Assembly: GCA_016188625.1 (NCBI GenBank)
Contig: JACPHL010000115.1
Span: 1 to 33,153, forward strand
Reading direction: 5' to 3'
From: Candidatus Rokuibacteriota bacterium
GTDB taxonomy: Bacteria > Methylomirabilota > Methylomirabilia > Rokubacteriales > JACPHL01
Length of the DNA: 33,153 nucleotides
Below the pieces are notes generated by a model. It saw only the letters and a program-made list of their open reading frames with translations. It was not told the origin of the DNA and ran no database searches. Shown piece after piece: positions 2,895-30,583 of this stretch; the stretch's first letter is position 1, and the number at the start of each line of letters is the position of its first letter. The position numbers and the translations under genes are program-made.

Positions 2895-3827
2895 GTGATG
2901 CGCGGCCTGGTCACGGGCGGGGCCGGCTTCATCGGTTCCCACCTCTCGGAGTTCCTCCTGGCCCGGGGGTGCGAGGTCGTCTGCCTCGACAACCTCCTGA
3001 CCGGGGCGATCGAGAACATCGACCCCCTCCGCTCCGAGCGCTTCACCTTCATCAAGCTCGACGTCACCACCTACATCTCCGTGGCGGGCCCCCTGGACTA
3101 CGTCCTCCACTTCGCGAGCCCGGCGAGCCCGGTGGACTACCTCGATCTCCCCATCCAGACCCTCAAGGTCGGGGCCCTGGGGACCCACAAGGCCCTGGGG
3201 CTCGCCAAGGAGAAGGGGGCGCGCTTCCTGCTGGCCTCGACCTCGGAGGTCTACGGGGACCCGCTGGTCCACCCCCAGCGCGAGGAGTACTGGGGGAACG
3301 TCAACCCGGTGGGCCCCCGCGGGGTCTACGACGAGGCCAAGCGCTTCGCCGAGGCCCTGACCATGGCCTACCACCGCGCCCACGGCCTGGACACCCGCAT
3401 CGTCCGCATCTTCAACAGCTTCGCCCCCCGGATGCGGATGCACGACGGCCGGGCCATCCCGACCTTCATCACCCAGGCCCTCCAGGGCCGGCCCCTCACC
3501 GTCAACGGCGACGGCACCCAGACCCGCTCGCTCATGTACATCCCAGACCTCATCGAGGGGATCTGCCGGCTGATGCAGGCCCCCGTCCACGACCCGGTCA
3601 ACCTCGGCAACCCGCAGGAGATGACCATCCTCGACCTGGCCAAGGCGATCCTCCGGCTCACCGGGAGCGCGAGCCCGATCGTCTTCCGGCCCGCGGGCGC
3701 CGACGACCCCAAGGTGCGGCAGCCCGACATCGGCCGGGCGCGCCAGCTCCTGGGCTGGGAGCCGCAGGTGGAGGTGGAGGAAGGGCTCCGGCGGACGATC
3801 GAGTGGTTCCGGGGGAGGCTCGGGTGA
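2895..3827 (+). CDS. uxs: UDP-glucuronate decarboxylase (UDP-xylose synthase), extended SDR
   Basis: 310 aa. [11 protein letters not shown] Rossmann motif, YDEAKR (YxxxK), and a [23 protein letters not shown] block typical of UXS. GTG 2895 and ATG 2898 are alternative starts. Confidence 0.88.
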
Positions 3828-4753
3828 GGCTCCTGGTCACGGGCGGGGCCGGCTTCATCGGTTCCCACCTCGTGGACCGCCTCGTGGCGGGGGGGCACGA
3901 GGTGGCGGTCGTGGACAACCTCGACACCGGCCGCGCCGAGCGCGTCCGGCCGCCGGCGCGCCTCCACCGGGTGGACCTCCGGAGCCCCCGGCTCGCCGAG
4001 GTGCTGGCGGCCGAGCGGCCGGAGGTGGTCTTCCATCAGGCGGCCCAGACCCAGCTCCGCCGCTCGGTGGACGACCCCGTCTTCGACGCCGGGGTCAACG
4101 TCGTGGGGAGCCTGAACCTCCTGGAGGCCTGCCGGCGGGTCGGCGTCCGGCGGGTCATCTTCGCCTCCTCCGGGGGCGCCATCTACGGGGACACCGAGGC
4201 CCTCCCCACCCCTGAGGACCACCTGCCCCGGCCGGCCTCGCCCTACGGCGTCGCCAAGCTGGCCGTGGAGCACTACCTGGCCTGCTGGCAGGGCCTCTAC
4301 GGGATCGGGATCGTGAGCCTCCGCTACGCCAACGTCTACGGCCCCCGGCAGGACCCGTTCGGGGAGGCGGGCGTGGTGGCGATCTTCGCCCACCGGATGC
4401 TCCGGGGCGAGCCGCCCCTGATCAACGGCGACGGCGAGCAGACGCGGGACTACGTCTACGTGGACGACGTGGTGGAGGCGAACCTCCGGGTCCTGGAGCA
4501 CCCCGAGGTGTCTGGCCCCCTCAACATCGGGACGGGCCTCGAGACCTCGGTGAACGCCCTCTTCCACCGGCTCCGCGAGCTGACCGCGGCCGCGGTCCCG
4601 GAGCGGCACGGCCCCCCCAAGGCGGGCGAGCAGCGGCGGAGCGGGCTCGACGTCTCGCTGGCCAAGCGGCTGCTCGGCTGGACGCCCCGGGTGGGCCTGG
4701 CCGAGGGGCTCGCCCGCACCGTGGAGCACTTCAGGAGGGAGCGCGATGCTTGA
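3824..4753 (+). CDS. NAD-dependent epimerase/dehydratase (UDP-glucose 4-epimerase-like)
   Basis: GTG 3824 overlaps the uxs stop (GTGA). [15 protein letters not shown] Rossmann motif and [13 protein letters not shown] (YxxxK). The N-terminal 285 aa of track ORF 2969..4753 are off-frame Pro/Arg-rich readthrough. Confidence 0.85.
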
Positions 4754-9242: not shown

Positions 9243-9346
9243 GGGGGGAGGCAGGCCCCGAAGCCTTTCGCCAGCGGCGAAGCCGGCCTGGCGAAAGGTG
9301 GGCTTCGCCCAGGGCCGTCGGAAGGGGGGCAGAGCCCCCCTCCGAG
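9243..9346 (+). repeat. Structured intergenic repeat, copy 2 (long form)
   Basis: Near-identical to copy 3 over about 100 nt. Central hairpin TTTCGCCAG...CTGGCGAAA and 3' hairpin GGAAGGGGGG-CAGAG-CCCCCCTCC. It ends 6 nt before the lepB ATG. Confidence 0.85.
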
Positions 9347-9352
9347 TTAGAT

Positions 9353-14114: not shown

Positions 14115-14999
14115 GTGAGCGCGCCGACGTTCTGGGCGCTCCGCGTGAGCCTCGCGCCCGGGACCGTCGAGGGCGTGACCAACTTCCTCTGGGAGGCCGG
14201 GGCGAGCGGGGTCATCGAGGAGGCCCCGGGCCCGCTGGCCACGCTGGAGGCCCACTTCCCCCCGGGGACCGATCCCGCCCTGACCGAGACCCGGCTGCTC
14301 GCCTATCTCGACGCCCTCCGGGCCCTGGGGCTCCCCGTGGGGCCGGGCGCCGTCCATGCCCGGCTCGTCCCCGACGAGGCGTGGGCCGAGGCGTGGCGGG
14401 CCCACTTCGTCCCCCGCCGGGTGGGGGAGCGACTCTGGGTCTGCCCGCCTTGGGACCGCCCGCCCGCCGGCCCCGGGGAGGTCGTGGTCGAGATCGACCC
14501 CGGCCGGGCCTTCGGGACCGGCGCCCACGCCACGACCCTCGGGTGCCTCGAGCTCGCCGCCTCGCTCCTCGCCACCACCGCCGGCCCGGCGGTCCTCGAC
14601 GTCGGCACCGGGAGCGGGATCCTCGCCGTCGCCTGCGCCAAGCTCGGCGCGGCCTCCGTGCTGGCGATCGACCTGGATCCCGACGCCGTGCGCGCGGCCG
14701 AGGCCAACGCCCTCCGGAACGGCGTGGCCCGCCAGGTGACGGTCGCCCTCGCCACGCCGGAGGAGCTGGACGGGGTGCGGGTCCCGCTCATCCTGGCCAA
14801 CCTCCTGGCCCCCGCCATCGAGCGGCTGGCCCCCCAGTTCGCCCGTCTCGCCGGGCGCCCGGGCTGGCTCATCGCCGGGGGGGTGTTGACCACGGAGGTG
14901 GGCCCGGTCGAGACCGCCCTGGGGCGCGTCGGCTTTCGCCCCTGCCGGCGGCTCGACCGGGAGGGGTGGGCGACCCTGCTCCTCGCGCGGGACGGGTAG
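14115..14999 (+). CDS. prmA: Ribosomal protein L11 methyltransferase
   Basis: IDPGRAFGTGAHATT and the SAM motif VLDVGTGSGILAVACAKLGA. Length and the synteny after dnaJ both fit PrmA. Confidence 0.9.
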   Translation: MSAPTFWALRVSLAPGTVEGVTNFLWEAGASGVIEEAPGPLATLEAHFPPGTDPALTETRLLAYLDALRALGLPVGPGAVHARLVPDEAWAEAWRAHFVPRRVGERLWVCPPWDRPPAGPGEVVVEIDPGRAFGTGAHATTLGCLELAASLLATTAGPAVLDVGTGSGILAVACAKLGAASVLAIDLDPDAVRAAEANALRNGVARQVTVALATPEELDGVRVPLILANLLAPAIERLAPQFARLAGRPGWLIAGGVLTTEVGPVETALGRVGFRPCRRLDREGWATLLLARDG

Positions 15000-15151
15000 G
15001 GGCCGTGGCCCAGGCGGATCCGGGGAGCGCCGGCTTCGAGTACTTCGAGGTCACGGCGGACGTCCCTCCGAGGGATCTAGGGGCCGTGGCCCAGGCGGAT
15101 CCGGGGAGCGTCGGCTTCGAGTACTTCGAGGTCACGGCGGACGTCGGGATC
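14997..15151 (+). repeat. Tandem duplication (81-bp period) spanning the prmA stop and archease start
   Basis: 14997-15064 and 15078-15145 are a 68-nt direct repeat with one mismatch (GCC vs GTC). The first copy carries an extra 7 nt (CCTCCGA, 15065-15071) before the shared GGGATC. Confidence 0.88.
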
Positions 15152-16653: not shown

Positions 16654-16759
16654 CTTGGGGGAGGCAGGCCCCGAAGCCTTTCGCCAGCGGCGAAGCCGGA
16701 CTGGCGAAAGGTGGGCTTCGCCCAGGGCCGTCGGAAGGGGGGCGGAGCCCCCCTCCGAG
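16654..16759 (+). repeat. Structured intergenic repeat, copy 3 (long form)
   Basis: Starts 7 nt after the lpxC stop and is near-identical to copy 2. Differences are one G fewer in the head, GGCCTGG vs GGACTGG, and loop CGGAG vs CAGAG. Confidence 0.85.
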
Positions 16760-16772
16760 TTTCTCTTTCTCC

Positions 16773-21081: not shown

Positions 21082-21109
21082 TTGACAAATCGCCGGGCGC
21101 GGGTATGTT
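21082..21109 (+). promoter_or_regulatory. Putative sigma70-type promoter of the pyr operon
   Basis: TTGACA (21082-21087), a 16-nt spacer, then TATGTT (21104-21109). Confidence 0.55.
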
Positions 21110-21118
21110 TGTGTTGAT

Positions 21119-21786
<668 letters not shown>

Positions 21787-21814
21787 GTCGCGGGGCAGGG
21801 TAAGGAGGCGCGCC

Positions 21815-22753
21815 ATGGGGCTCAGGGGGAAGGACCTCATCGAGGTGCGGGGCCTCGAGCCGGCCGAGATCGAGCTGATCCTGGACACGGCCGAGTCGAT
21901 GAAGGAGATCGCCTCGCGGGCGATCAAGAAGGTCCCGACCCTCCGCGGCAAGACCGTGGTCAACCTGTTCCTCGAGCCCTCCACCCGCACCCGGACCTCC
22001 TTCGAGATCGCCGGGAAGTGGCTCTCGGCCGACGTCGTCAACGTCTCCGGCTCGGCCTCCAGCGTGGTCAAGGGCGAGACCCTCATGGACACCGCCAAGA
22101 ACCTCGAGGCGATGAGCCCGGACTGCGTGGTGATCCGCCACGCCATGGCCGGGGCCCCGCACATGCTCGCCCGCGCCCTCCGCGCCGCCATCATCAACGC
22201 CGGGGACGGGGCCCACGAGCACCCGACCCAGGCCCTCCTGGACCTCCTCACCATCCGGGAGAAGAAGGGGCACCTGGACGGGCTCAAGGCCGCCATCGTG
22301 GGGGACATCGCCCACAGCCGGGTGGCCCGCTCCAACATCTACGGGATGCGGAAGATGGGGATGACGGTGACCGTGGCCGGGCCGCCGACCCTGATCCCGC
22401 CGGGGGTGGAGGAGCTGGGGGTGAAGGTGGCCCACCGCCTCGAGGAGGCGATCCGTGACGTGGACGTCGTCATGATGCTCCGCCTCCAGCAGGAGCGGAT
22501 GCAGGCGGCCCTGATCCCCTCCCTCCGCGAGTACGCCCGGCTCTGGGGGCTGACCCTGGACAGGCTGGCCGCGGCGCGGGAGGACGTCCTCATCATGCAC
22601 CCGGGGCCGGTGAACCGGGGGGTCGAGCTGGCCCCGGAGGTGGCCGACAGCCGCTACTCGGTCATCCTGGACCAGGTGGCCAACGGCGTCGCGGTCCGGA
22701 TGGCGCTCCTCTACCTCCTCATCGGCGGCAAGCCCGCCGAGGCCGGCGCGTGA
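21815..22753 (+). CDS. pyrB: Aspartate carbamoyltransferase catalytic subunit
   Basis: STRTRTSFE, the HPTQ block ([10 protein letters not shown]) and HPGP (MHPGPVNRG). Confidence 0.96.
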
Positions 22754-22763
22754 GGGGCGGGCC

Positions 22764-24065
22764 GTGGACCTGATCATCAAGGGCGGGCGGGTGGTCGATC
22801 CGGCCAACGGCCTGGACGGGGTCGCCGACGTCCTGATCCTGGACGGCCGGATCGCCCGGGTGGAACGGGGGCTCGAACCCCCCGAGGGGACCCCGGCCGT
22901 CGAGGCTGCCGGGAAGGTCGTCGCCCCCGGGTTCATCGACCTGCACGTCCACCTCCGCGAGCCCGGCGAGGAGTACAAGGAGACCGTGGCCACCGGCACC
23001 CGCGCCGCGGCCGCCGGCGGGTTCACCGCGGTCGTCGCCATGGCCAACACCCTCCCCGTGAACGACACCCGCGCCGTCACCGACTACATCCTGGCCCAGG
23101 CCCGGGCCGACGGGGTCGTCCGCGTCTACCCCGTCGGCGCGGTCTCCAAGGGGCTCCGGGGGGAGGAGCTCGCCGAGCTCGGGGAGCTGGCCGAGGCCGG
23201 GTGCGTCGCCTACTCCGACGACGGCCAGCCGGTCATGGACTCGGCCCTCCTCCGCCGGGCCCTCGAGTACGCCCAGGCCTTCGCCAAGCCGATCATCTCC
23301 CACGCCGAGGACGCCCACCTCGCGGCCGACGGGGTCATGCACGAGGGGTTCGTCTCCACCGACCTCGGCCTCAGGGGGATCCCGGCCGCGGCCGAGGAGG
23401 TCATGGTCGCCCGCGACATCGCCCTGGCGGAGCTGACCGGAACCCCGATCCACATCGCCCACGTCTCCACCGCCGGGGCCGTCCGGCTGATCCGGGACGC
23501 CAAGGGCCGCGGGGTCCCGGTGACCGCCGAGGTCACCCCGCACCACCTCCTCCTCACCGACGAGGCGGTCCGCGGCTTCGACCCCAACACCAAGATGAAG
23601 CCGCCCCTGCGGGGGAAGCGCGACGTCGAGGCGTTGCGCGAGGCCCTGGCCGACGGGACCCTGGACGCCATCGCCACCGACCACGCCCCCCACGCCCTGG
23701 CCGACAAGGAGGTGGAGTACGACCTGGCCGCCTTCGGGATCGTCGGCCTCGAGACGGCCGTCCCCCTCGGCCTCACCCACCTGGTCCGGGAGGGGGTCCT
23801 GGACCTCCCGGCCTTCATCGCCCGGCTCACCGTGGGGCCGGCGCGGATCCTGGACCTGCCGCTCGGGACCCTGAGCCCCGGCGCGCCCGGGGACGTCACC
23901 GTCCTGGACCTCGACCGGGAGCTGGTCATCGACCCCTCCCGCTTCTACTCCAGGAGCCGGAACACCCCCTTCGGGGGGTGGCGCTGCGTCGGGGCGCCCT
24001 GGATGACGATCGTCGGGGGACGGGTCGTGATGTGGGAGCGCGTGATCAAGGGGGGGACGAGGTGA
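22764..24065 (+). CDS. pyrC: Dihydroorotase
   Basis: [10 protein letters not shown] metal-binding motif, IATDHAPH, and amidohydrolase-fold length of 433 aa. Confidence 0.94.
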
Positions 24066-25186
24066 GGGCGCTCCTGGCCCTGGCGGACGGGCGGCTCTTC
24101 GAGGGGGAGGCCTTCGGGGCCCCCGGCGAGACGGCGGGGGAGGTCGTCTTCAACACCGCCATGACCGGCTACCAGGAGATCCTGACCGACCCCTCCTACA
24201 GGGGGCAGCTCGTGGTTATGACCTCCCCCCACATCGGGAACACCGGGGTCAACCCCGAGGACGTGGAGTCCCATCGCCCCTGGGTGGAGGGGTTCATCGT
24301 GCGGGAGGCCTGCCCGGCCCCCTCGAGCTGGCGGGCGACGGCGAGCCTGGAGACCTATCTCCGGGAGCACGGGATCGTGGGGATCGAGGGGATCGACACC
24401 CGCGCCCTGACCCGCCACCTCCGCGACCAAGGGGCGCAGCAGGCGGTCCTCTCCACCGTGGACCTCGACCCCGAGAGCCTCCGGGCCAAGGCCCGGGCCC
24501 TCCCCAGCCTGGTCGGGCAGGACCTGGTGAAGGAGGTGACCTGCCAGGCCGCCTACGCCTGGAGGGAGGCGATCTGGGAGCTGGGCAGGGGATACCTCGC
24601 CCCGCCGGCCGCCCGGCACCGGGTGGTCGCGTACGACTGCGGGATCAAGCGGAACATCCTCCGCCAGCTCGCCGCCGTCGGGTGCGAGGTCACCGTGGTC
24701 CCCGCCTTCACCCCCGCCGCCGAGGTCCTGGCCCTCGCGCCCGACGGCGTCCTCCTCAGCAACGGCCCCGGGGACCCCGAGGCGGTCGGCTACCTCATCG
24801 AGGCGGTCCGCCAGCTCCTCGGGCGGCTCCCCATCTTCGGGATCTGCCTCGGCCACCAGATCCTGGGGCTCGCCTTCGGGGGGCGGACCTACAAGCTCCC
24901 GTTCGGTCACCACGGGGCGAACCACCCGGTCCGGGACCTGGCCACGGGACGGGTGGAGATCACCACCCAGAACCACGGCTTCGCGGTGGAGTCGGACTCG
25001 CTCGAGCGGCTGGGCCTCGATCTGACCCACGTCAACCTCAACGACGGGACCTGTGAGGGGATGCGCCACCGGGAGCTGCCGGTCTTCTCGGTCCAGTACC
25101 ACCCCGAGGCCTCCCCCGGCCCGCACGACTCGCACTATCTCTTCCCGCGGTTCGTCCAGCTCATGGACGCCGCGAAAGGCAGGTGA
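24062..25186 (+). CDS. carA: Carbamoyl-phosphate synthase small (glutaminase) subunit
   Basis: GTG 24062 has a GTGA overlap with the pyrC stop. [19 protein letters not shown], catalytic GICLGHQ, and [19 protein letters not shown]. Confidence 0.96.
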
Positions 25187-25190
25187 GCCG

Positions 25191-25460
25191 ATGCCCCGTT
25201 ACTTCATCTCGTACCGGAAGACCGAGGGGCTCGGGCAGAAGCCCGAGTGGGGGAGCTTCACCACCGAGTCGGACCTGGCCCTGGAGGCCCACGCCATCCG
25301 CGAGCGGGTGGAGCGGCGCCTCCAGGTCCTGGGCGAGCAGCTCGTCGGGGGCGGCGAGGTCTTCTGGCTCGGCCAGGGCCCGCTCGACGAGTTCTTCGTC
25401 CGGCGGGAGGAGGCCTCCCCGGAGGTCACCGTCGTCTACGGCCTCATCCAGGAGCGCTGA
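25191..25460 (+). CDS. Hypothetical 89-aa protein between carA and carB
   Basis: ATG 25191 lies 4 nt after the carA stop. Very high third-position GC (host-like) supports coding. I recognise no motif in it. Confidence 0.55.
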   Translation: MPRYFISYRKTEGLGQKPEWGSFTTESDLALEAHAIRERVERRLQVLGEQLVGGGEVFWLGQGPLDEFFVRREEASPEVTVVYGLIQER

Positions 25461-25469
25461 CGGCGTCCC

Positions 25470-25586
25470 ATGCCTAAGCGCACGGACTTACGCAAGATCC
25501 TCATCATCGGCTCAGGGCCCATTGTGATCGGGCAGGCGTGCGAGTTCGACTACTCGGGGACCCGGGCGTACACGGCCGGCAAATGA
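25470..25586 (+). pseudogene. carB 5' fragment (38 codons: 31 identical residues, 5 diverged codons, then unrelated GK and a stop)
   Basis: [31 protein letters not shown] is identical in protein to the carB N-terminus at 26155, then reads RAYTAGK*. Its TGA overlaps the ATG of the next ORF (ATGA). Confidence 0.85.
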
Positions 25587-25903
25587 CCCTGGAACAGCAG
25601 ATCGAGTGCATCGTCAGGCAGATCGTTGAGGGGTACCGACCTCTGAAGGTTATCCTCTTCGGCTCGCACGCCTACGGCGAACCCACAGAGGACAGCGACC
25701 TTGATCTTTTGATCGTGAAGGAGACGTCCGAGCGGTTCATCGACCGGTGGGTTGCGGTCCAGGAGTTGATCGCGGATCCCGAACGGCGGATCCCCGTGGA
25801 GTCGATCGTGGTGACTCCTGGCGAGCTGCAGCGGCATCTGACCCGCGGGGATCAGTTTTTCCAGGAGATCGTCGCCCGCGGGAAGCTCCTCTATGCCGCG
25901 TGA
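25583..25903 (+). CDS. Minimal nucleotidyltransferase (MNT / antitoxin-type NTase domain protein)
   Basis: 106 aa. [21 protein letters not shown] matches the GSxxxG...DxD polymerase-beta-like NTase signature. Size and C-terminal helices fit MNT proteins of HEPN/MNT modules. Confidence 0.8.
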
Positions 25904-25943
25904 GGAATCCCGCTATCCCGGGGATTGGCTGAGGAGGAGGTGA
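25893..25943 (+). pseudogene. Possible vestige of a HEPN partner gene (16 codons)
   Basis: ATG 25893 overlaps the NTase stop, as in MNT-HEPN pairs. [16 protein letters not shown] resembles the WL..AE.DL N-terminal helix of HEPN-domain partners and then stops. Confidence 0.25.
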
Positions 25944-25950
25944 TCACCTC

Positions 25951-26154
25951 GTGATCAGAGACGGCCACGACTTCCTGGAATGGCTCCACCGGATCAGGGA
26001 GGAGCACGCGCGCGAGCGTGAAAAGATGACGGACAAGGAGGTGATCGCGCAGATTCAAGCGGAGGCCAAGGGACTGCTGGACGAGGCAGGGTACACGCTC
26101 AAGCCCGCCCCGGATGGTCCGGGCAATCGGATCGTCAAGCGGGGGGAGGCCTGA
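25951..26154 (+). CDS. Hypothetical 67-aa protein
   Basis: GTG 25951 lies 7 nt after a perfect GGAGGTGA ribosome-binding site. MIRDGHDFLEWLHRIREEHAREREKMTDKEVIAQIQAEAKGLLDEAGYTLKP.. Its TGA directly abuts the carB GTG. Confidence 0.5.
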   Translation: MIRDGHDFLEWLHRIREEHAREREKMTDKEVIAQIQAEAKGLLDEAGYTLKPAPDGPGNRIVKRGEA

Positions 26155-29288
<3,134 letters not shown>

Positions 29289-29302
<14 letters not shown>

Positions 29303-30002
29303 GGCGCGCGACCGGCTCATCGTGGCCCTGGACGTGGATTCGCTCGCCCGGGCCGAGGAGTTGGTGACCGCCCTCGCGCCGCTGGTGACGACCTTCAAGG
29401 TGGGGGGGCCGCTCTTCACCGCGGCCGGGCCCGCGGCGGTCGAGCTGGTCCGAAAGCGCGGGGGGAAGGTCTTCCTCGACCTCAAGTACCACGACATCCC
29501 CGCCGCGGTGGCGGGCGCGGTGCGGGGGGCCGCGCGCCTCGGGGTGGCGATGCTCACCGTCCATGCCTCGGGGGGCTCGGCGATGCTCCGCGCCGCGGCG
29601 GAGGCCGCCGGCGAGAGCCGGGCCGAGGGGCGGCCGCTGGTCCTGGCCGTGACGCTCCTGACCAGCCTGGACCGGCGGGCCCTGCATCGCGAGCTCCGGA
29701 TCCCCGCCACCGAGGAGGCCCAGGTCCTCCACCTGGCCCAACTCGCGCGCGAGGCCGGCTGTGACGGGTGCGTGGCCTCTCCCCGCGAGCTCCAGCCGCT
29801 CCGTCGGCTCCTGGGCCGCGACTGGGTCGTCGTGACCCCGGGGATCCGACCGGAGGCGGTGGCCGGGGACGATCAGGCCCGCGTGGCCTCGCCCGAGGCC
29901 GCCATCGCCGCCGGGGCCGATTACCTGGTGGTTGGGCGGCCGATCACCGCGGCCCCGGACCCGGCGAAGGCCGCCGCCGGGATCCTGGAGGCGATCCGGT
30001 GA
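29289..30002 (+). CDS. pyrF: Orotidine 5'-phosphate decarboxylase
   Basis: [15 protein letters not shown] and [10 protein letters not shown] (DxKxxD) motifs, 237 aa. Confidence 0.93.
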
Positions 30003-30583
30003 GGGACGAGCGGGCGCTCCTCGAGCTCTTCGAGGGCACGGGGGCCCTCCTCCGCGGTCACTTCCGCCTCACCTCGGGGCTCCACTCCGAGGTCTACCTC
30101 CAGTGCGCCCTCGTCCTCCAGCACCCGAGCTACGCGGGGGAGCTGGGGGCCCAGCTCGCCGACGCCTTCCGGGGGGCGGGGGCGGAGGCGGTGGTCGCCC
30201 CGGCGATCGGCGGGATCCTGGTCGCCCACGAGGTGGCCCGCGCTCTCGGCGTCCGCGGCCTCTTCACCGAGCGGGAGGACGGCCGGATGCGCCTGCGCCG
30301 GGGGTTCAGCCTCCGGGGCGGCGAGCGGGTCCTGGTCGTCGAGGACGTGATCACCACGGGCGGCTCGACCCGCGAGGTGATCCGGGCCGTGGAGGAGGCG
30401 GGGGCGAAGGTCGTCGGGGTGGGGGCCCTGGTGGATCGGAGCGGGGGGAAGGCCGAGTTCTCCGTCCCACGGACGGCCCTCCTCTCCCTGGCCCTCCCCA
30501 ACTACCCGCCGGAGAGCTGCCCCCTGTGCGCGAGAGGGCTCCCCGCGGTCAAGCTGGGGAGCCGCCCGGCGACGGAGGGGTGA
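29999..30583 (+). CDS. pyrE: Orotate phosphoribosyltransferase
   Basis: GTG 29999 has a GTGA overlap with the pyrF stop. GHFRLTSGLHS and the PRPP motif VLVVEDVITTGGST. Confidence 0.93.
   Translation: MRDERALLELFEGTGALLRGHFRLTSGLHSEVYLQCALVLQHPSYAGELGAQLADAFRGAGAEAVVAPAIGGILVAHEVARALGVRGLFTEREDGRMRLRRGFSLRGGERVLVVEDVITTGGSTREVIRAVEEAGAKVVGVGALVDRSGGKAEFSVPRTALLSLALPNYPPESCPLCARGLPAVKLGSRPATEG

Follow-up and report, generated by a model that had tools for sequence, protein, structure and literature searches.

A disarmed, probably neutral relic of two toxin-antitoxin modules in the pyr operon of a Rokubacteria genome

Introduction

For an addiction module, loss of the toxin with retention of the antitoxin is the sole viable order of decay. 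Orphan antitoxins and degenerate chromosomal toxin-antitoxin loci are documented, for example in the surveys PMC7192599 and PMC7354431. Among the systems closest to the locus described here are the HEPN/MNT modules, in which a HEPN protein is paired with a minimal nucleotidyltransferase (MNT). In Yao et al. 2020 (PMC7641770), the GSX10DXD motif is shown to be catalytic in MntA, Class II HEPN/MNT is the combination of a PF05168 HEPN with a PF01909 MNT, and adenylylation is shown for Class I only (DUF86 HepT, RX4HXY). The present analysis concerns a 33,153-nt stretch of DNA from a Candidatus Rokuibacteriota bacterium (contig JACPHL010000115.1; hereafter, the window, at its full length). At positions 25470-26154, within the pyr operon, it carries an intact MNT gene and an intact 67-aa open reading frame (ORF), p67, and lacks the toxin genes of both modules to which these belong. 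We consider it likely, with a probability of roughly 0.65, that this segment is a disarmed, recent and probably neutral relic of two toxin-antitoxin modules. The locus had been examined earlier from its sequence and ORF translations, without database searches (the original prediction); what it stated about the sequence proved correct throughout, coordinates included.

Results

An MNT gene followed by a truncated HEPN gene

The G+C content is 72% across the window, and the closest relatives are metagenome genomes of Rokubacteria/Methylomirabilota. Other loci or contigs are cited by L numbers (such as L119). The features of the insert and its right flank are the following.

25470-25586, + strand: carB', a 38-codon ORF made of ~108 nt of carB and then GGCAAATGA; CPSase_L_D1 match, E=2.4e-11
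25583-25903, + strand: MNT, an intact minimal nucleotidyltransferase gene of 106 aa; antitoxin type of HEPN/MNT modules, now partnerless
25893-25943, + strand: HEPN', a 16-codon ORF comprising the first 13 HEPN codons, 3 foreign codons and a stop
25929-25937, no strand: deletion junction, placed by three-way alignment and blastn breakpoints; 3-5-nt AGG/GAGG microhomology
25933-25954, + strand: 3' end of a PIN gene, the last seven codons and stop (..EEVITS, then stop); identical to L039 2345-2366
25951-26154, + strand: p67, a 67-aa ORF; conserved small partner of a PIN/VapC-like protein, now an orphan
26155-29302, + strand: carB, the full gene after the insert; its first 107 nt are the right repeat copy

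The 106-aa ORF had been assigned to the MNT-type nucleotidyltransferases (NTases), and the Pfam check bears this out, with 35.9 bits for Polbeta (PF18765; cutoff 26.9) and 35.8 bits for NTP_transf_2 (PF01909; cutoff 21). The GSX10DXD motif is exact (G27-S28-X10-D39-L-D41), and the nearest solved structure is 1WOT, a 'putative minimal nucleotidyltransferase' (E=8e-4). The NCBIfam MntA_antitoxin equivalog scored 29.9 bits, below its cutoff of 60, and PADLOC returned candidate-system (PDC) matches only. We found 318 homologues, with 60-92% identity among the best 120 listed, in Rokubacteria, NC10 and Tectomicrobia; no relative of the window MNT was found in viral contigs.

HEPN' overlaps the MNT stop by 11 nt, exactly as the intact HEPN genes of relatives do, and 12 of its 13 first residues are the same as in the intact 129-aa HEPN of L119, the closest relative; the HEPN of L039 also matches. 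This likeness is homology and not chance. The gene order of L119 is carA-p89-carB'(38 aa)-MNT-HEPN(129 aa)-carB, and its HEPN belongs to PF05168 (E=1e-22). L005 has, at the same chromosomal site, pyrR-pyrB-pyrC-carA-p89-MNT-HEPN(129 aa)-carB-pyrF. Adjacent MNT (GSX10DXD) and PF05168 HEPN genes are found at the locus in L005, L119-L122 and L039, whereas only 13 HEPN codons remain in the window, which thus holds the remnant of a Class II HEPN/MNT module and not a module. The HEPN of L119 does not contain RX4HXY and reads ..ALRRIHDLQVL..; a PDB sequence search with it gave nothing significant, and PADLOC on HEPN gave nothing meaningful.

These comparisons agree with the original prediction in that the 16-codon ORF is the start of a HEPN-like gene and that a toxin was lost to leave an orphan antitoxin-type MNT. 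Its description of the HEPN partner as decapitated does not fit: the gene is truncated, with the head surviving and the body gone. The proposed HEPN/MNT pairing stands, but not the assignment to type VII (Class I), as the partner in relatives is PF05168.

A paralogous MNT-HEPN module lies between guaA and dnaE in relatives (L001-L004, L007, L040, L041 and L044), where the HEPN stop overlaps the dnaE start.

p67 as the partner of a VapC-like PIN protein

The 67-aa ORF is preceded by GGAGGAGG at 25933-25940, its Shine-Dalgarno sequence, and the TGA of the PIN tail overlaps its GTG start. Its own TGA adjoins the carB GTG at 26155, and the carB Shine-Dalgarno sequence, GGGGGGAGG (26141-26149), sits inside its 3' end. 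The ribosome-binding box and the abutting stop had both been read correctly before. Because the deletion described below left the last PIN codons, the ribosome-binding site, called perfect at the time, is the tail of the deleted PIN gene.

Just 16 relatives of p67 were found at E<=1e-3 among 1.84 billion representatives, and it matches no Pfam, NCBIfam or PADLOC family. The AF2 model (pLDDT 73) consists of two helices and a hairpin and has no fold match with E<1 in the PDB; comparison with known antitoxin families and DNA-binding folds did not place p67 among them. What identifies it is its neighborhood. In every related locus, p67 is directly downstream of a 156-158-aa PIN ORF, usually with a 4-nt overlap. 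The order is p89-PIN-p67-MNT-HEPN-carB in L008, L009, L011, L012 and L013 (L010 is the same, with PIN disrupted), PIN-p67-carB in L014, p89-EamA-PIN-p67-carB in L015 and EamA'-PIN-p67 in L028; PIN-p67 thus occurs in either order relative to MNT-HEPN and also without MNT. Adjacency and overlap are conserved across lineages (L008-L015, L028, L039, and the distant L125, L127, L129 and L130), and the small ORF downstream of the four distant PIN homologues carries the IHxIRE..E.K motif of p67. The 67-aa ORF therefore appears in relatives as an independent conserved gene and not as the C-terminus of an unrelated one, the outcome that the original prediction had named as telling against it.

In L125 (1501-2146; Schekmanbacteria), a homologous pair of PIN and p67-like genes separates hemA from hemC, in another essential biosynthetic operon.

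The PIN protein has 3724 homologues, many of them recorded with PF01850 and some named VapC family toxin by NCBI. The Rokubacteria members reach 18-19 bits with the Pfam PIN model (cutoff 23.6), PDB sequence searches with PIN profiles gave nothing significant, and PADLOC gave nothing meaningful; the fold came via AF2 and Foldseek. The AF2 model has a pLDDT of 90.8, and its top Foldseek matches are VapC toxins (E=5e-5, probability 1.0, TM 0.6-0.7). E51, D101 and D114, acidic residues of the active site, do not vary, and position 9 holds either D or E. With a modeled PIN fold and conserved acidic residues, the 156-158-aa protein can be classed as a VapC-like PIN protein. By its gene neighborhood, p67 is the conserved downstream partner of this protein, in a second module and not in the MNT module. 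A complex between the NTase and p67, which had been suggested for structure prediction, is unlikely because p67 belongs to the PIN-p67 module.

One deletion across two adjacent toxin genes

The undeleted array is represented by the metagenome contig L039, which reads carB'(917-1024)-MNT-HEPN(129 aa)-carB''(~41 codons)-PIN-p67-carB and has the same carB'-MNT junction as the window, GCCGGYAAATGACCC. On the left, window positions 25100-25935 are collinear with L119, at 95.5% identity over 836 nt (blastn), and collinearity stops at 25935. On the right, positions 25933-26276 are 97.4% identical to L039 2345-2688 (PIN end, p67 and carB), with 0 differences in 198 nt of p67. Where the two meet, ..GATTGGCTSAGG on the HEPN side joins the PIN 3' end, ..CCGGAGGAGGTG.. 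/ ..CCGGAGGAGGTGATCACCTCGTGA, so that HEPN codon 13 is followed by the last seven PIN codons. Relative to L039, ~0.96 kb is absent (its 1382-2344), a stretch that covers the remainder of HEPN, carB'' and almost the whole of PIN.

Aligned in this way, the three sequences show the trace of a single microhomology-mediated deletion, which took both toxin genes and carB'' and spared both antitoxin-type genes. The ancestral array was that of L039, in which the Class II pair is antitoxin-first and the PIN pair toxin-first. One deletion could remove both toxins because the modules have opposite gene orders, which places the toxin genes back to back. An independent deletion is seen in a similar array in L014, where a TAC microhomology links MNT codon 28 to carB'', with loss of the MNT 3' end, HEPN and the carB'' 5' end.

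Upstream of its decayed left carB', L039 has low-GC DNA (1-916) instead of carA-p89, with 90-aa and 196-aa ORFs similar to ORFs found beside the PLD nuclease of L123, which points to another inserted block that may be related to defence.

The insert within the pyr operon

The pyr operon comprises the genes at 21.1-30.6 kb. By Pfam, their order is a PRTase-domain gene (presumed pyrR), pyrB, pyrC, carA, p89, the insert region, carB, pyrF and a second PRTase-domain gene (presumed pyrE). The relevant features upstream of the insert are listed below.

21082-21109, + strand: promoter-like site, TTGACA-16-TATGTT
21119-21221, + strand: PyrR-binding attenuator-like leader, an RF00515 match over the full model, upstream of pyrR-pyrB-pyrC-carA
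21190-21213, + strand: terminator hairpin ending the pyr leader, followed by a T-run
25191-25460, + strand: p89, a conserved 89-aa ORF after carA; left edge of the hotspot

The leader was recognized at relaxed Rfam thresholds, with 49 bits for RF00515 (PyrR) against a gathering score of 54 (E=1e-5); at gathering thresholds, Rfam gave no match in the whole window. The + strand at 21213-30500 yielded no promoter-like or terminator-like site, which agrees with the earlier statement that there is none inside the cassette. Expression from the pyr transcript, proposed at the same time, is plausible given the promoter-like site, the sub-threshold PyrR match and the tight or overlapping junctions up to carB. 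MNT and p67 would thus still be made from the PyrR-attenuated transcript, along a translation chain that would run p89, 9 nt, carB', ATGA, MNT, an 11-nt overlap, HEPN', 7 nt, p67, TGA-GTG and carB.

The impression that codon choice in the cassette is less GC-biased than in its flanks also proved right: G+C at third codon positions (GC3) is 0.81-0.85 in carB', MNT and p67 versus 0.94-0.99 in the flanking pyr genes. On this measure, the composition of the three is foreign.

The p89-carB junction as an insertion hotspot

p89 has no Pfam, NCBIfam or PADLOC match. It lies directly after carA in 23 Rokubacteria/Methylomirabilota species genomes and normally adjoins carB. The p89-carB site is empty in 15 of the 23 and holds inserts in 7; in the remaining one, the contig ends before carB. 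The inserts in species genomes include HicB-like/HicA, a weak PBECR2-like protein with DUF2283, a lone DUF2283, EamA and PIN-p67. Across these genomes, the p89-carB junction behaves as an insertion hotspot of Rokubacteria. In the literature searched, we met neither this hotspot nor any toxin-antitoxin modules of Rokubacteria. Across L017, L019, L020, L025, L030, L034 and L123, the cargo at the site consists of HicB-like/HicA, the weak PBECR2-like nuclease with DUF2283, the lone DUF2283 (another apparent orphan), the EamA transporter, and a PLD-family nuclease with a 204-aa ORF upstream of MNT-HEPN.

Copies of the carB start and a recombination mosaic

carB' keeps the native p89-carB start context and is a direct repeat of 107 nt, 88% identical, of the true carB start (26156-26262). 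Its stop overlaps the NTase ATG as ATGA (25583-25586), as the original prediction had stated, and this carB'-MNT junction recurs in L119-L122 and L039. Over codons 2-31, carB' and the true carB start differ by 10 synonymous and 0 non-synonymous changes. Moreover, carB' is a mosaic, since nt 1-32 match the left copy of L119 and nt 33-93 match the right copies of L119/L039. The synonymous-only differences and the mosaic left copy indicate conversion from functional carB alleles rather than neutral drift.

The same patchiness extends beyond carB'. From pyrC to the carB' start, the window and L119 are ~99.5% identical, with no synonymous differences in p89, and in MNT the dS between them is 0.30. 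The window carB is 14% divergent from that of L014 in the first 600 nt and ~99% identical over the remaining 2 kb (the 3' two-thirds). Such alternation of near-identity and divergence implies that the locus is a mosaic resulting from patchwise homologous recombination. Close relatives have several structural alleles between them, and L119 and L014 come from the same sample.

All carB 5' copies have a 44-nt identical core in common; their break points vary (~nt 76-137), and the final stop of each cassette is 0-5 nt from a carB start codon. No integrase was found in the locus or in related loci, and no attC-like element was seen, a dedicated attC model not having been run. A phage or attP origin of the carB repeat found no support, as no viral contig carries the conserved carB core or a relative of this MNT. 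The simplest explanation, we infer, is that the cassettes were acquired via one-ended homologous recombination, with the highly conserved 5' end of carB as the anchor. A more far-reaching idea, which we put forward tentatively and with the odds against it, is that carB' is a portable homology arm carried with the cassette and allowing RecA-type entry and exit without a dedicated recombinase. Entry would occur by one-ended recombination or Campbell-type integration of a circle, and exit between the direct repeats. If true, this would mean that recombinase-free cassette arrays exist at carB and dnaE starts, wired into operon translation, and would account for the direct repeats around MNT-HEPN modules in L041, L053, L065, L073, L095, L098 and L105.

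Repeats of related kinds were observed elsewhere. In L008 (4936-5098) and L015 (2374-2565), the last cassette is followed by a carB copy that also breaks off, at ~nt 76-95. In both cases, the copy runs into a common unknown sequence, TCGACCACTCCGGGCCRGATAA...GGGGGAGGAGGCGGGGTG, shortly before the contig ends, so there are probably more cassettes, with assemblies breaking at these repeats. L041 has the same pattern as carB at another gene: guaA-MNT-HEPN-dnaE'-Band_7/SPFH-dnaE, where the dnaE' fragment is 84 codons long and 90% identical over 168 nt. In unrelated metagenome loci (L065 2123-3714, L095 172-1479, L053, L073, L098 and L105), MNT(-HEPN) modules lie between direct repeats 40-170 nt long. 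The repeated stretch of L065 comes from the 5' end of the following gene, which encodes a second HEPN, and that of L095 from the 3' end of an opposite-strand HicB-like gene.

Other repeats in the window

A GC-rich intergenic repeat of ~105 nt is present in three copies (9244-9348, 16657-16761 and 2779-2887; 98% and 79% identity). It has nested palindromes with one apparently compensatory change, from TTTCGCC..GGCGAAAGG to GGTCGCC..GGCGACCGG, and no Rfam match; it could be a REP/MITE-like or terminator-like element. Two further repeats lie in the window: one of 68 nt in tandem (14997-15064 and 15078-15145), whose copies are 98.5% identical, and one of 99 nt (2906-3004 and 3832-3930), whose copies are 80% identical and ~0.9 kb apart.

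Discussion

We favor a recent neutral relic because the p67 segment is identical to that of L039 and because MNT position 85 is H in the window and R in 111/111 homologues. Since neither MNT nor p67 has its cognate toxin, the locus would no longer form an addiction or abortive-infection module; at most, the two proteins might neutralise paralogous toxins elsewhere in the genome.

Several points weigh against this reading. The dN/dS of MNT relative to L119 is 0.155, inside the family range of 0.05-0.2, with no clear signal of relaxed selection; R85H and R9C (C is found at position 9 in no homologue) are the sole hint of relaxed constraint, so that neutral decay, though probable, is a judgement. 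The role of p67 as the presumed antitoxin of PIN is deduced from conserved adjacency, and the toxin and antitoxin activities of this Class II HEPN/MNT subfamily and of PIN-p67 are putative. The PyrR match is under the Rfam gathering score, and both transcription and translational coupling are read from the DNA alone. Finally, no second contig with the HEPN'-p67 junction was found, such that the deletion rests on one assembly, and the same contig carries another microhomology deletion, in carB, a possible sign of a defective variant or of chimeras formed during amplification.

The best-surviving alternative accepts the same structural history and differs as to present function. MNT and p67 would be retained by selection as stand-alone antitoxins, either anti-addiction or cross-neutralising, with MNT acting against a paralogous HEPN (that of guaA-MNT-HEPN-dnaE or of incoming mobile elements) and p67 against a related PIN. 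Both ORFs are indeed full length, with intact motifs and ribosome-binding sites, and the dN/dS of MNT gives no sign of decay. Relatives carry the second MNT-HEPN locus, whose MNT is ~78-84% identical, and in L007 and L028 the guaA-dnaE MNT-HEPN locus and the carB hotspot occur within the same assembly. In addition, L017 has a lone DUF2283 at the same hotspot, which suggests that toxin loss with antitoxin retention recurs, and orphan antitoxins are on record in the surveys cited above. However, the deletion looks very recent (0/198 nt in p67), so intactness says little about selection, R85H alters an otherwise invariant residue, and a paralogous toxin is not demonstrable from 33 kb of genome. 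We hold retention by selection to be rather unlikely.

Less probable again is that the HEPN'-p67 junction is an amplification chimera or an assembly error, the real genome being of the L119 or L039 type. The junction occurs on one contig only, the locus is structurally polymorphic and repeat-rich, and many related contigs break there. Furthermore, the window carB has a 59-nt frameshifting deletion at ~28153 (28100-28200). The missing stretch, flanked by two copies of GGACCGC, is present in 7/7 relatives compared, including the near-identical L014, in which this essential gene is intact. As a consequence, CarB residues 1-666 lie in one frame and 688-1066 in another, and the frameshifted carB is either a defective variant or an artefact. 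On the other hand, the 3-5 nt common to both sides of the HEPN'-p67 junction are far under an assembler k-mer, so the junction must exist on sequenced molecules. Its product is also tidy: reading frames and Shine-Dalgarno sequence are kept, as is the junction between p67 and carB, and the independent microhomology deletion in L014 indicates that such events happen here.

It is highly improbable that MNT and p67, or MNT alone, were co-opted into pyrimidine metabolism or regulation (for example, as an NTase acting on a pyr component or as a new MNT-p67 pair): the MNT-HEPN modules of this lineage do sit in nucleotide-biosynthesis operons (carA-carB and guaA-dnaE), and the genes here are translationally chained into the operon, but the hotspot also holds unrelated toxin-antitoxin modules and a transporter, which marks an insertion site rather than a function, 15/23 species have no insert, and the MNT-p67 adjacency is unique to the deletion allele, p67 following PIN and MNT preceding HEPN elsewhere.

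Much in this locus is already known, from the gene families (MNT/HEPN and PIN) to the occurrence of orphan antitoxins and the decay of chromosomal toxin-antitoxin loci, and the kind of gene decay is ordinary. Less ordinary are the disarming of two modules by a single deletion, for which progenitor array and complementary allele have both been recovered; the pairing of the p67 family with a widespread VapC-like subfamily in which the gene order is reversed; and an array of cassettes, within an attenuator-controlled operon, whose boundaries are 5' fragments of an essential gene. The progenitor (L039), the single-module form (L119) and the deletion alleles (the window and L014) give an unusually complete view of the death of chromosomal toxin-antitoxin modules. 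Outside the hotspot, the window, L119 and L014 hardly differ, and together they show that two modules can lose their toxins and keep their antitoxins in one step. The analysis also proposes a partner role for the previously unannotated p67 family of small proteins and points to p89-carB of Rokubacteria as a toxin-antitoxin hotspot within an essential operon. On a larger scale, it can be tested whether essential genes supply, in duplicated pieces of their 5' ends, the homology anchors by which cassettes pass from genome to genome.

Among known systems, the window resembles Class II HEPN/MNT in its MNT, which has GSX10DXD and the typical size of ~100 aa, and in relatives whose MNT lies upstream of a 129-aa PF05168 HEPN with an 11-nt overlap; it differs in that its HEPN is cut to 13 codons and no longer forms a pair. 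Type VII HepT/MntA (Class I) requires a PF01934 (DUF86) or PF08780 toxin with RX4HXY, whereas the partner in relatives is PF05168 without this motif, and the window MNT falls below the NCBIfam MntA cutoff (29.9 vs 60 bits). As in VapBC, the deleted PIN gene encoded a predicted fold closest to VapC, with conserved acidic residues, in a tight two-gene unit with a small partner. Unlike VapBC, the order of PIN-p67 is reversed, with the toxin first, p67 matches no antitoxin family or fold (Pfam, NCBIfam, PADLOC and PDB), and the Rokubacteria PIN is below the Pfam gathering threshold; the window keeps p67 and seven PIN codons only.

The locus is also similar to integron cassette arrays and to the tandem accretion of integrated elements at a conserved gene end, in which cassettes stack at one site between direct repeats and toxin-antitoxin cargo is typical. 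Here, however, the repeats are coding 5' fragments of the target gene (carB, or dnaE in L041), and the carB and dnaE arrays differ from integron cassettes in that no integrase or attC-like element was seen in them and no carB core was found in viral contigs. Finally, as in orphan antitoxin loci, the window has lost toxin and kept antitoxin; it differs from them in that one deletion disarmed two unrelated modules at once, and in that the progenitor array and the complementary allele can both be identified.

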